A DNA stretch of 26,449 nt from Fidelibacterota bacterium (lineage in GTDB: Bacteria; Fidelibacterota; UBA2242): contig JAUSPJ010000271.1 in the NCBI GenBank assembly GCA_030655795.1, forward strand, positions 1 to 26,449. The letters are read 5' to 3'. Shown one piece after another: positions 14,749 to 21,542 of the stretch (position 1 is the stretch's first letter; each line of letters opens with the position of its first letter). Below the pieces are notes generated by a model that made no database searches, was not told the DNA's origin, and worked only from the letters and a program-made list of their open reading frames with translations. Both the position numbers and the translations under genes were made by a program.

Positions 14749-16107
14749 TTATTCGTTTTTCATAAAATCTTTACGCTTGCCGGTTGTGTACACATTCAGG
14801 GCAATATTGATCCCTTTTGCCGTCGTAAACCATAAACCCTGGTTCAGACCAAACGCCCAATCAACATGGATAAAACCGGTGTGGAAGCCGCTGCCGAACG
14901 TCATCTCCAGGTGTTTCCAGCCGCCGAAGGACACACCGGCCCGAAGGGGGATTCGGGGGCTCTTGGTCACTTCAATCCCGGTGCTCCATTTCCAGGCGCC
15001 AAATGAATAAAACCGGTCCTCAAAACCGACAACAAAATCCATCGCCAGCTGCATACCGTCTTCAATCCATTTGGACATACTGAAACGGGCCAGACTGGGA
15101 TAATTCATAACAAATTCACTGGAGTCGGAAATGGACCGATTACCACCGGGAAAAATATCGCTAAATCCGGCTTTCCCAAAAAATTTGTCCATCCGGGCTT
15201 CATTGACCTTAAACCAGTAGGCATGATTCCCACCGTCTCCAATAAACCCCTGATTTCCCATTAATCGTGAAATGATTGTGCTTTTATTCCAGTTAATCTG
15301 GCCAAAAACATTTGTGACGGAAAAACCAAGCCGGTAGCCGTCGATTTCCTGGGTGGTAATGCCGATATCCATTCCAAAACCACGCCCGCCAACGGACTGC
15401 TGAAACAGGTAATAGCCTTCCCCTTCCATATAATTTTTACCGGAAGAGAAATTGGTCTTCACATAGCCGTATGAAGAATCGGGATTCAACCCAAAATAGC
15501 TGATACCCTGCAGGTATTTAAAGGACACTCCGAAAAACAGTTTTTTAATCGGAAAGGCAAAGGAGTAAGCATACTGATTCATAATCAGAAAATCTTCCCG
15601 GAAATCCAGGCTCATTTCCTCGCCAATCGGATTACCGTCAACGATGAACGTCACCAGTCCTTTGGGCAATCCAATATCGCCGATCATGATGACATCCGAG
15701 GTAAAGGCTTTATTGTAGCGTGAAAAATTCAGATAGGGAATAGGAACATGCAAATCTGTAAAAATCCGCAAGCCATTTGCAGGAATTTCCGCCAGAAACT
15801 GTTCTTTCAGCAAACCGTCATTGGCCTCAAAGTCTTTGCCGTTATATTTGTTATAGCTGCGCATGGAGAGCATATTATTAGTAAAACTGGTATTGATTCC
15901 ACCCCAGACGCGATAGGATTTGTACTGTTCCTGAATAGCCAGGTTGGCGGGATTATAATCCACTGTGAACAGACCGCGGGCCATGACGCCATAGGCGCCT
16001 GCGAGCGCCATTCCGCGGGGGTCCCGCCGGGTTTGCCCCGATAACGAGACTATCAATCCCAGAAGGATACAAGCAATGACAATCTTTTTAGCGTGGCGGA
16101 GCTGCAT
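14749..16107 (-). CDS. Outer-membrane beta-barrel protein, FadL-like hatch motif (DUF5723-like), copy 2
   Basis: Signal peptide ending SLSG-Q, PRGMALAGAY…NPANLA, alternating amphipathic strands (GFGMDIG, LRAGVSFG, HVDWAFG). The Pfam name is recalled, not searched. Confidence 0.75.
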   Translation of the reverse strand: MQLRHAKKIVIACILLGLIVSLSGQTRRDPRGMALAGAYGVMARGLFTVDYNPANLAIQEQYKSYRVWGGINTSFTNNMLSMRSYNKYNGKDFEANDGLLKEQFLAEIPANGLRIFTDLHVPIPYLNFSRYNKAFTSDVIMIGDIGLPKGLVTFIVDGNPIGEEMSLDFREDFLIMNQYAYSFAFPIKKLFFGVSFKYLQGISYFGLNPDSSYGYVKTNFSSGKNYMEGEGYYLFQQSVGGRGFGMDIGITTQEIDGYRLGFSVTNVFGQINWNKSTIISRLMGNQGFIGDGGNHAYWFKVNEARMDKFFGKAGFSDIFPGGNRSISDSSEFVMNYPSLARFSMSKWIEDGMQLAMDFVVGFEDRFYSFGAWKWSTGIEVTKSPRIPLRAGVSFGGWKHLEMTFGSGFHTGFIHVDWAFGLNQGLWFTTAKGINIALNVYTTGKRKDFMKNE

Positions 16108-16108
16108 T

Positions 16109-19838: not shown

Positions 19839-19841
19839 ATA

Positions 19842-21542
19842 CTATCCGGTTGTATCCGTTACTGTTTGATTCAATACCGCTGGATCAAACAGCAAATTTA
19901 AGTAACTCTTGATTTCAATCCGGTAATCGCTCTGTAAGAATACCCGGCTGGTATCTGGATTCAGCAAATGAAATTTTGGCAGAAAATAACAGGTGTCCGC
20001 AATCAGGGCCAGTGCGCTGGAATCGGCAAAATATACCTGATTATTCCAGCCGGCGGAAACCAGGGAATCATCCTGCATGGTCGCCAAGGGCAACTCAACA
20101 ACCGCCAGCGTATCGATAATCACCAGTTCTGTATCCGTACTGATATAATAAAGCGTATCATTGATATATTCAAAGCCGGTATAATTACTGGCCTCAGCGG
20201 AATCCGCCGGAAAGACCCGCTGATTTCCAATCAGGAGCAGCAGGGAACCGCGAAACGGGGTCCGGTTCGTGATGCTGATATCCAGCTGAGCGCCATTCTG
20301 GGACCGGCTGATATTAGAGCGGGTCAGGCTGTCTGTAATAAAAAACCGGGTTGGATTAGCGGCGGCCAATTGCATCTCTGCCGGTAATGTTATTAATAAT
20401 GGCGCATATAGCTGATAACCGACTGTAATTTTATCGCTGATACTGCTGCCGTCATATTGCATTAATGGCTGCGCGGCTTCAACATAAAACGTGATGCTGT
20501 CCGGAAGAACTGCCATAACAGGCGCAAGGTCCAGCCGGTATGCTGTCCCACTGATAGTAAACGCTGAATCAATAGTTACATCTGTTCGGAACTGGTTTTT
20601 TCCGGAAATGACAATATGGATTGAATCATAGTCATCCACATCCTGAAGTGTAATATCGGCGTTGGCATTATCAAAAAGAATCCCGTCGGCACCGTCCGGA
20701 CTGCTGAGGAACTCCTGTCCGGTCAGGTATCCCGATGCAATCGGTCGGCCATAAAAAGAATCCAGGTGCAGTGTTCCTATCTCGAACCGTATCATTAAAT
20801 TCTGCGATAATTCTTCCCGGAGTGTATCCCGGATCATAATTGTCAGTCCGAATTCCAGGGAATCAATAAAGGATGTCCGGTTTTTGCTGAACAATGAGTC
20901 ATCAGCAAAACTCATCGTCAGTTGATTACTCAGACTGTCAGCCGCCAGGTGCAGTGTGTCAATCCAGATTGTATCGGTATCGGCATTTTTAAAATTACGG
21001 GCAATAATCTCAATATCCAGATCATTGCTGAGAGTCTCGGAAAGTATGGCTGAAATCCGGGCCGCATTTATTCCGGTCCCGTCATCGGAATTCAAGGCCC
21101 CCTTTACAACATAACAATTACGAGTACTGATTTTTCCAAGGGCTTTGGTCTGATAAACCGGAACAAGATCGTTTAAACCGGCTTTGATGGATGTTGCCAG
21201 GTTAATCTGTTTTTCGAAAGTCATACCCGGTATTTTCCAGTAGTCATCGGAAACCGACAACGCCTGCCCCGGTGTATCCACAGCAAAATAATACATTCTC
21301 TGATAGCTGGTATCCGCAAATATCTGATTGTTCCGGCTGGATGTGGAATCGTATACTAAATCCTGAAAAGAATAATCCTTCTTCAGCAATGGAATAATCA
21401 GTTTTGAATTCCAGCGCGCCGGTAAACGAGGCATTGTGGGCACTTCGAACTCACATCCGATTAATCCCCAGATCAGTAGGACACTCAGATAAATAAGTAA
21501 ATTCTTTTTCAGCAAAGACTTTTTACAAAATTGAATTTTCAT
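19842..21542 (-). CDS. Large lipoprotein of unknown function, copy 1 (about 566 aa)
   Basis: Lipobox GLIG-C followed by P..P.W…IPL. ATG 21542 is preferred over TTG 21554. The C-terminal region aligns with the 752-aa paralog. Confidence 0.85.
   Translation of the reverse strand: MKIQFCKKSLLKKNLLIYLSVLLIWGLIGCEFEVPTMPRLPARWNSKLIIPLLKKDYSFQDLVYDSTSSRNNQIFADTSYQRMYYFAVDTPGQALSVSDDYWKIPGMTFEKQINLATSIKAGLNDLVPVYQTKALGKISTRNCYVVKGALNSDDGTGINAARISAILSETLSNDLDIEIIARNFKNADTDTIWIDTLHLAADSLSNQLTMSFADDSLFSKNRTSFIDSLEFGLTIMIRDTLREELSQNLMIRFEIGTLHLDSFYGRPIASGYLTGQEFLSSPDGADGILFDNANADITLQDVDDYDSIHIVISGKNQFRTDVTIDSAFTISGTAYRLDLAPVMAVLPDSITFYVEAAQPLMQYDGSSISDKITVGYQLYAPLLITLPAEMQLAAANPTRFFITDSLTRSNISRSQNGAQLDISITNRTPFRGSLLLLIGNQRVFPADSAEASNYTGFEYINDTLYYISTDTELVIIDTLAVVELPLATMQDDSLVSAGWNNQVYFADSSALALIADTCYFLPKFHLLNPDTSRVFLQSDYRIEIKSYLNLLFDPAVLNQTVTDTTG

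Follow-up and report, generated by a model that had tools for sequence, protein, structure and literature searches.

A duplicated lipoprotein and DUF5723 barrel module of Marinimicrobia, distinct from BamG-BamH and possibly a capped FadL-type channel

We analyzed a stretch of 26,449 nucleotides (contig JAUSPJ010000271.1, in its full length called the window below), in which four minus-strand genes at positions 14749-21542 encode two copies of a pair consisting of a large lipoprotein (LP1, LP2) and an outer-membrane barrel (BB1, BB2). The host is an uncultured bacterium from groundwater, a member of Marinimicrobia (Neomarinimicrobiota/Fidelibacterota), and its genome is 2.03 Mb in size and 70% complete. 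Lipoprotein and barrel form an obligate two-gene unit, with the lipoprotein gene directly upstream in every pair examined, and this unit is a family separate from the BamG-BamH pair (BamGH) of the Bacteroidota β-barrel assembly machinery (BAM). Members of the family occur across Marinimicrobia and, at the least, also in Calditrichota/KSB1-like bacteria. With a probability that we put a little short of even, the module would be a lipoprotein-capped, TonB-independent channel of the FadL type, a reading that we slightly prefer over a pure docking module. The genes and the segments discussed below are as follows.

LP1, 19842-21542, minus strand: lipoprotein of 566 amino acids (aa) with a leader ending in LIGC, from open reading frame (ORF) and translation
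LP1 residues 30-54, 21381..21455, minus strand: lipidated Cys and the family-wide conserved tail
BB1, 18414-19838, minus strand: 474-aa FadL-fold barrel, Pfam DUF5723
BB1 residues 37-63, 19650..19730, minus strand: N-terminal hatch segment with the NPA motif
LP2, 16109-18364, minus strand: lipoprotein of 751 aa counted from ATG, with a leader ending in SLSC; paralogue of LP1
LP2 residues 27-48, 18221..18286, minus strand: lipidated Cys and conserved tail, aligned to the LP1 tail, with F/Y replacing W
BB2, 14749-16107, minus strand: 452-aa FadL-fold DUF5723 barrel, paralogue of BB1
BB2 residues 30-56, 15940..16020, minus strand: hatch segment with the NPA motif

Architecture, pairing, and duplication of the module

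A sequence-only reading of the window had described four tightly coupled genes in the order lipoprotein-barrel-lipoprotein-barrel, with both the barrels and the lipoproteins being paralogues. Our analysis confirmed this. On the minus strand the order is LP1-BB1-LP2-BB2, with 3 nucleotides (nt) between LP1 and BB1 (TAG-tat-ATGCAG), 1 nt between LP2 and BB2 (TAG-a-ATGCAG), and 46 nt between BB1 and LP2; both lipoprotein-barrel pairs are translationally coupled. LP2 has an alternative GTG start one codon upstream of the ATG. The two barrels share 38% identity over 464 aligned columns (E 2e-102) and the two lipoproteins 23% over 463 (E 1e-14), the latter alignment including the segments quoted in the earlier reading. 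Promoter and terminator scans gave no sites above those in shuffled sequence. Sequencing runs containing the stretch are groundwater and subsurface metagenome DNA, one groundwater run holding 89% of its sampled words; no RNA run among those listed was shown to contain it.

Both barrels belong to the FadL family, with 14 strands and an N-terminal NPA hatch according to the structure models. DUF5723 (PF18990, gathering threshold 26.8 bits) matches BB1 with 42.5 bits and BB2 with 38.1 bits, and most barrel homologues carry it as well. Two related models fell short of their cutoffs: Toluene_X/FadL (PF03349) gave 14.3 bits for BB1 against a threshold of 29.7 and no match for BB2, and the PorV/PorQ model NF033709 gave 39.3 and 19.2 bits for the two barrels against 90. 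The AlphaFold 2 (AF2) model of BB1 (predicted local distance difference test [pLDDT] 82.3) resembles FadL, TodX, TbuX, and CymD with VIA Z scores of 25-29 over 290-327 residues, PorV with 26.4-26.8, and BamG with 21.3-22.7, followed by a clear drop to the next fold, OmpG, at 16.6. In a sequence search of the PDB with the barrel profile, the best match was PorV (E 1.5e-5). N59, P60, A61, and L63 (BB1 numbering) are invariant in 38 barrels with identities down to 24%, and loop 82-116 is conserved. The FadL-like fold proposed from the letters alone is thus borne out, and all barrel motifs quoted with it were found, namely, the SLSG-Q cleavage site, PR..A..GA...NPANLA, DWAxG, and a basic tail after TGK with no terminal Phe.

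Compared with FadL, TodX, TbuX, and CymD, the module barrels share the fold, the NPA hatch, and a mature N terminus of equal length, since residue 30 of the BB1 model aligns with FadL residues 1-5, which indicates from the model that there is no N-terminal extension. They differ in having at most 18% sequence identity and extracellular loops of greater length, and BB1 and BB2 end in a basic tail in place of a terminal Phe. No lipoprotein partner is known for these four channels.

LP1 and LP2 each start with a hydrophobic leader ending in a Cys that is invariant in 36 diverse homologues. It is followed in the same 36 homologues by a conserved tail, C-x-F-x-x-P ... P-x-W ... L-x-x-P-L, in which the C, two P, the W, and L vary little or not at all. 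LP1 and LP2 matched no family of Pfam or NCBIfam (LP1 had none even at E≤1), and neither DUF4270 nor DUF4621 turned up in Pfam scans of 10 long relatives, 10 short ones, and 36 diverse ones. The AF2 model of LP1 (pLDDT 80.5) is all-β, with several sandwiches similar to jelly rolls or carbohydrate-binding modules (CBMs). Its best structural match was 4h3w (BDI_1231 of Parabacteroides distasonis; Z 14.3 over 284 residues, the next match being at 8.8), which was also the sole match of a broad lipoprotein-family profile in the PDB (E 0.022). BDI_1231 is the sole solved relative of these lipoproteins and has no assigned function, and its approximately 340 aa compare with 560-1040 aa in the lipoprotein family. 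In the ESM Atlas, small Bacteroidota clusters, part of them with DUF4621, reached TM scores of 0.58-0.60 to the lipoprotein. The literature on DUF4621, BDI_1231, and 4h3w held nothing relevant.

The lipoproteins evolve faster than the barrels, with identities in related loci of 37-85% for LP1 versus 54-93% for BB1, and among 1.84 billion representative proteins searched with a profile, only 271 were lipoprotein relatives. LP1 is the shorter and faster-evolving copy; LP2, which matches the hidden Markov model (HMM) of the lipoprotein family at E 1e-157, has about 190 additional residues in its N-terminal half. Both are rich in D-(S/T)-(AILVMT), which we take to be the O-glycosylation motif known from Bacteroidota. 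There are 16 such motifs in LP1 and 17 in LP2 (z about 6.5 versus shuffles) and 0-2 in each of 13 other proteins counted (both barrels and 11 window proteins). LP1 and LP2 are therefore probably glycosylated, and the counts agree with heavy O-glycosylation as in Bacteroidota, if Marinimicrobia have such a system; by analogy they would be surface exposed. Their fast evolution, CBM-like sandwiches, and motif counts are in keeping with a lipoprotein of the surface type.

The pairing of the two genes holds over large distances. All 12 related loci long enough to judge retain the order LP1-BB1-LP2-BB2, with LP1 identity down to 37%. The lipoprotein led to 20 distant Marinimicrobia loci, and in all 20 a barrel gene follows immediately downstream, mostly with a 4-nt overlap. 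A further 22 barrels were drawn from genomes or places without a strong lipoprotein match, and all 22 have a family lipoprotein of 670-1000 aa upstream (HMM E 3e-4 or better, save for one that is cut by the contig end and matches at E 1e-3). The pair is also present on KSB1/Caldithrix-like (Calditrichota) contigs and on three other distant contigs, and contig C298 of the host genome carries another pair, its third and a more divergent one (PF18990, 48.4 bits for its barrel). Other FadL-like barrels in Marinimicrobia genomes fall into different clusters, and no family lipoprotein adjoins them. The sequence-only reading had suggested looking for co-occurrence and co-phylogeny of the two families, and in all pairs examined the lipoprotein gene lies directly 5' of the barrel gene.

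The two families also codiversify. The clades of the barrel tree recur in the lipoprotein tree. BB1 groups with BB2 as its sister (support 99) and LP1 likewise with LP2 (support 85), the LP1 clade (stem 1.21) and the LP2 clade each have a support of 100, and copy 1 is on the longer stems in both trees. The matching trees indicate a single duplication of the whole pair in an ancestor of this order. A recent, local duplication does not fit, as the four-gene order is kept across an order-level lineage. A second, independent tandem duplication, mirrored in both trees, occurred in the other lineage of the pair, that of the third pair, in family f10 (families, genera, genomes, and loci are given by our own numbers). 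It was seen at loci L055 and L056 (genomes G019 and G025), where lipoproteins of 823 and 673-679 aa are each followed by a barrel.

A DUF5723 barrel was found in 93 of 121 genomes. None was found in two streamlined lineages, family f12 (0/6) and genus g21 (0/15), both of which keep a BamG-like barrel. In families f1-f4, both barrel copies are present in 21 genomes, neither in 7, and one alone in 0. This both-or-none retention is suggestive and points to two specificities needed together or to a hetero-complex.

Capped channel or docking module

We predicted the complex of BB1 residues 32-474 with LP1 residues 30-566 in three runs with three controls. The ipSAE score was 0.49 (0.47-0.52 among runs), compared with 0.00 for the best of the controls, and the result was graded as weak support. 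In the calibration of the method, 58 of 80 solved complexes and 2 of 110 mismatched pairs passed. Of the same 80 solved complexes, only 7 gave a score of 0.60 or less, and so did both mismatches that passed. An interface between cognate partners, one of the checks proposed with the sequence-only reading, is thus predicted within the weak band. On the LP1 side, the predicted contacts are residues 37-54, which is exactly the invariant tail (37-47 and 49-54 forming the main contact), as well as 416-423 and 545-554. On the BB1 side they are loops 87-111, 162-168, 225-232, and 328-331, which would face outward, judging from the barrel topology.

In our preferred reading, each copy would be an obligate outer-membrane complex of a 14-stranded FadL-fold barrel and a large, cotranslated surface lipoprotein. 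The lipoprotein is predicted to dock on the long extracellular loops of the barrel via the conserved tail after the Cys and the C-terminal β-sandwich. As a cap, it would pick up a ligand, hydrophobic or amphipathic, at the cell surface and pass it to the hatch and lateral opening of the barrel. The logic of SusC-SusD would thereby be transferred to a passive, TonB-independent channel, and the duplicated pairs would provide two jointly needed specificities or form a hetero-complex. With SusC-SusD and RagAB the module would share the design of a barrel with an adjacently encoded cognate surface-lipoprotein cap as well as repeated duplication; however, SusC-SusD and RagAB consist of a 22-stranded TonB-dependent barrel and a helical lid similar to tetratricopeptide repeats (TPRs), and they have no homology to the pair. 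In agreement with the earlier reading, no TonB-box, SusD, or type IX secretion system (T9SS) tail family matched any of the four window proteins in Pfam and NCBIfam scans. We prefer the capped channel because the hatch is transporter-like and unextended, the nearest structures are transporters, the distribution is that of an accessory system, duplication was repeated, and the cap is fast evolving and CBM-like.

The strongest competing explanation, to which we give clearly less than an even chance, is that the barrel transports nothing and the module, like BamG2-BamH2, serves for docking or display or belongs as an accessory to some larger machine of the envelope. In that case the barrel would only clamp the lipid-anchored tail of a surface glycolipoprotein, itself a scaffold, canopy, or adhesin that might be bound to BAM, LptD, or a different complex. 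In Bacteroidota, BAM was shown in 2025 to include BamG, a FadL-family barrel, and BamH, a DUF4270 surface lipoprotein whose conserved lipidated N terminus is held by the extracellular part of BamG (PMC12611786, PMC12578637). FadL-fold barrels with surface lipoprotein partners are essential to outer-membrane assembly there, and a paralogous BamG2-BamH2 operon exists (PMC12611786, PMC12578637). Structures are available from Flavobacterium johnsoniae (9N2D), Bacteroides thetaiotaomicron (9HIV/9HJ3), and Porphyromonas gingivalis (9HJM). BamG and PorV, the FadL-fold barrels of the Fibrobacterota-Chlorobiota-Bacteroidota (FCB) superphylum with solved complexes, are both protein docking, and the predicted LP1-BB1 contact is of the same kind as that between BamH and BamG, a mechanistic resemblance that does not speak for homology.

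The gene neighborhood bears on the same question. In the pair lineage that includes the window module, the pair lies between metK-ahcY upstream and a convergent lptF/G downstream, a setting that is constant throughout Marinimicrobia and in the KSB1/Caldithrix-like contigs and is deep and vertical; the lineage of the third pair is without this setting. Near the pair, no catabolic, regulatory, or fatty-acid genes were found in either lineage. The synteny and the lack of catabolic genes favor docking.

Other observations speak against docking. The barrel does not have the N-terminal extension of BamG, and its structure is nearer to transporters. Lineages that retain a BamG-like barrel and SprA dispense with the module. 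In addition, none of the subunits of the published expanded lipopolysaccharide (LPS) translocon is FadL-like, and lptF/G and the pair converge; as they are not co-oriented, cotranscription of lptF/G with the pair is unlikely.

The capped channel, in turn, has several points against it besides the missing catabolic genes. A housekeeping context conserved across phyla agrees with a role in the envelope no less well than with nutrient uptake. The NPA hatch of PorV is also unextended, yet PorV docks proteins and does not transport small molecules. The interface score lies in the weak band, and likeness to the solved BamGH and PorV complexes could inflate it. The both-or-none pattern in f1-f4 rests on few independent losses, and for Marinimicrobia both surface exposure and O-glycosylation are assumptions drawn by analogy from Bacteroidota. 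As a broader proposal, which we hold tentatively and regard as somewhat improbable in its full form, the DUF5723 barrel and its lipoprotein would be a further system of Marinimicrobia and several FCB phyla close to them, independent of BAM, the LPS translocon, and T9SS, that acts as a passive counterpart of SusCD, with a glycosylated cap feeding a FadL channel and the duplicates cooperating.

The role of the module would show how far the superphylum has reused the barrel-plus-lipoprotein design, and it would test whether passive FadL channels can bear substrate-binding caps.

The pair is distinct from BamG-BamH

The module and BamG-BamH have in common a 14-stranded FadL-fold barrel with a surface lipoprotein, genes that are often adjacent, and paralogous second pairs. 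We considered whether the window genes are simply the Marinimicrobia orthologues of BamH and BamG and thus core BAM subunits. Foldseek listed the BamG chains 9n2d_B, 9hiv_F, and 9hjm_F among its top matches to the barrel. Liu et al. (Supplementary Table 1) reported adjacent BamG and BamH genes in Ignavibacterium, Salinibacter, Fibrobacter, Gemmatimonas, and Caldithrix, several of the FCB species outside Bacteroidota; Marinimicrobia are not in that table. We looked for the Caldithrix genes, Cabys_4206/4207, and for the others of that table via protein names, and among the 120 matches listed there was no record named Caldithrix abyssi.

However, the host genome carries a separate, full-length BamG-like barrel on another contig (G000:C171:3587-4732), which matches the BamG equivalog model NF053685 with 173.5 bits; upstream of it lie a truncated GlgA-like gene and the gene of a 434-aa lipoprotein of its own. 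No NF053685 match at E≤0.01 was obtained for BB1, BB2, or the third barrel, and BLAST of BB1 against the BamG-like protein gave E 0.02. BB1 is nearer in fold to FadL and PorV (Z 25-29) than to BamG (Z 21-23). In BamG, a conserved N-terminal extension exceeds FadL by about 10-12 residues and passes through the lateral opening; it is not present in the BB1 model. Residue 30 of that model aligns with residue 37 of BamG from B. thetaiotaomicron, which is the end of its extension (23-37), so the model places the N terminus of BB1 after this segment. In the BamG-like protein of the host, NPA is preceded by about 13 residues more than in BB1.

The lipoproteins and the distribution agree with this. 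A search of 61 genomes for DUF4270 (PF14092, BamH) found it in none of them, B. thetaiotaomicron serving as the positive control, and Pfam gave no DUF4270 match for LP1, LP2, or the 36 diverse homologues. No BAM-complex chain was among the top 50 structural matches of LP1. The BamG-like gene is present in 113 of 121 genomes, mostly in single copy, and it is kept in f12 (6/6) and g21 (14/15), where the module was not found. BamGH membership was rejected on the separate BamG-like operon, the missing NF053685 and DUF4270 matches, the absent extension, and the differing distribution, and orthology now appears very improbable.

A match to an already characterized system had been named as what would overturn the proposal of an undescribed two-component system. 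BamGH membership was tested and failed, so that the family remains functionally uncharacterized. The word "undescribed" holds in part, since a close analogue, BamG-BamH, has been characterized (PMC12611786, PMC12578637). The barrel-plus-lipoprotein design is known from BamGH, and this family is new to the literature searched, in which two papers mention DUF5723, in passing only, and the lipoprotein-DUF5723 pair is not described. Marinimicrobia and neighboring phyla thus have a second, widespread, and vertically inherited barrel-lipoprotein module that coexists with the BamG-like operon, and gene adjacency with a FadL fold is not sufficient to name a pair BamGH.

We give an equally small chance to a role as a T9SS accessory, in which the barrel would be a shuttle or anchor of the PorV/PorQ type with a partner. 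With these proteins the module barrels share the FadL fold (Z 26.4-26.8), a weak profile similarity (39 bits with the PorV family model), PorV as the best PDB sequence match, and a plausible protein-docking role, and in three loci T9SS-tailed proteins adjoin the pair (upstream in L021; downstream in L067 and L069). The score is, however, far below 90 bits, the same genomes have 8-26 PorV/PorQ-model matches of their own, most of them above the cutoff, and the lipoproteins do not have a T9SS C-terminal domain. Moreover, presence of the pair is uncoupled from SprA in both directions: the pair is present and SprA was not found in f9, f15, and f18 (high-quality genomes, 96-100% complete), whereas SprA is present and the pair is lacking in f12 and g21. 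We rejected the T9SS link on this double dissociation and the subthreshold PorV score, in accordance with the earlier reading, which had seen no T9SS signature.

Membership in the expanded Bacteroidota LPS translocon was considered because the neighborhood with lptF/G is conserved. The subunits described in a preprint of October 2026 are LptN/P/Q/R/S/T/U/V, with LptN having 22 strands, LptQ and LptV 8 strands each, and LptT being helical. This candidate was rejected, as no FadL-like subunit is described (text, not coordinates, was compared) and lptF/G is convergent.

Other envelope clusters and neighboring genes

PorV/PorQ proteins are expanded in Marinimicrobia, as seen from the 8-26 matches per genome in G010, G004, G029, G006, and G030, most above 90 bits. 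SprA_N was not found at E≤1e-20 in G006, G018, and G091 (f9), G039 and G103 (f15), and G051 (f18), all 96-100% complete, and some Marinimicrobia lineages may be without type IX secretion. At two loci from outside Marinimicrobia, a Peptidase_M6 protein with a T9SS-type C-terminal domain is encoded directly after the pair (L067:4109-5839 and L069:5253-6959).

The BamG-like gene of the host genome is part of a conserved cluster (L083, G000:C171:546-6052; the same in L082 and L084) in the order TPR protein, truncated glycogen-synthase-like gene, 434-aa lipoprotein, barrel, and TPR lipoprotein. The GlgA-like gene is kept but shortened, with 278 aa and the N-terminal Glyco_transf_5 only. A further conserved envelope cluster was noticed at loci L070, L071, and L074 (genomes G029, G010, and G030), where a small barrel of about 300 aa and an 810-855-aa protein with a barrel-like C-terminal motif are followed by a 443-464-aa FadL-like barrel and a 545-626-aa protein with an N terminus similar to metallophosphatases/5'-nucleotidases.

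In the window itself, a ParE-family toxin gene (PF05016, E 2.5e-13) and a small upstream antitoxin-like ORF lie between ahcY and LP1 (21573-22010, minus strand), with a further small ORF at about 22040-22223. This toxin-antitoxin pair breaks the otherwise conserved neighborhood of ahcY and the lipoprotein gene.

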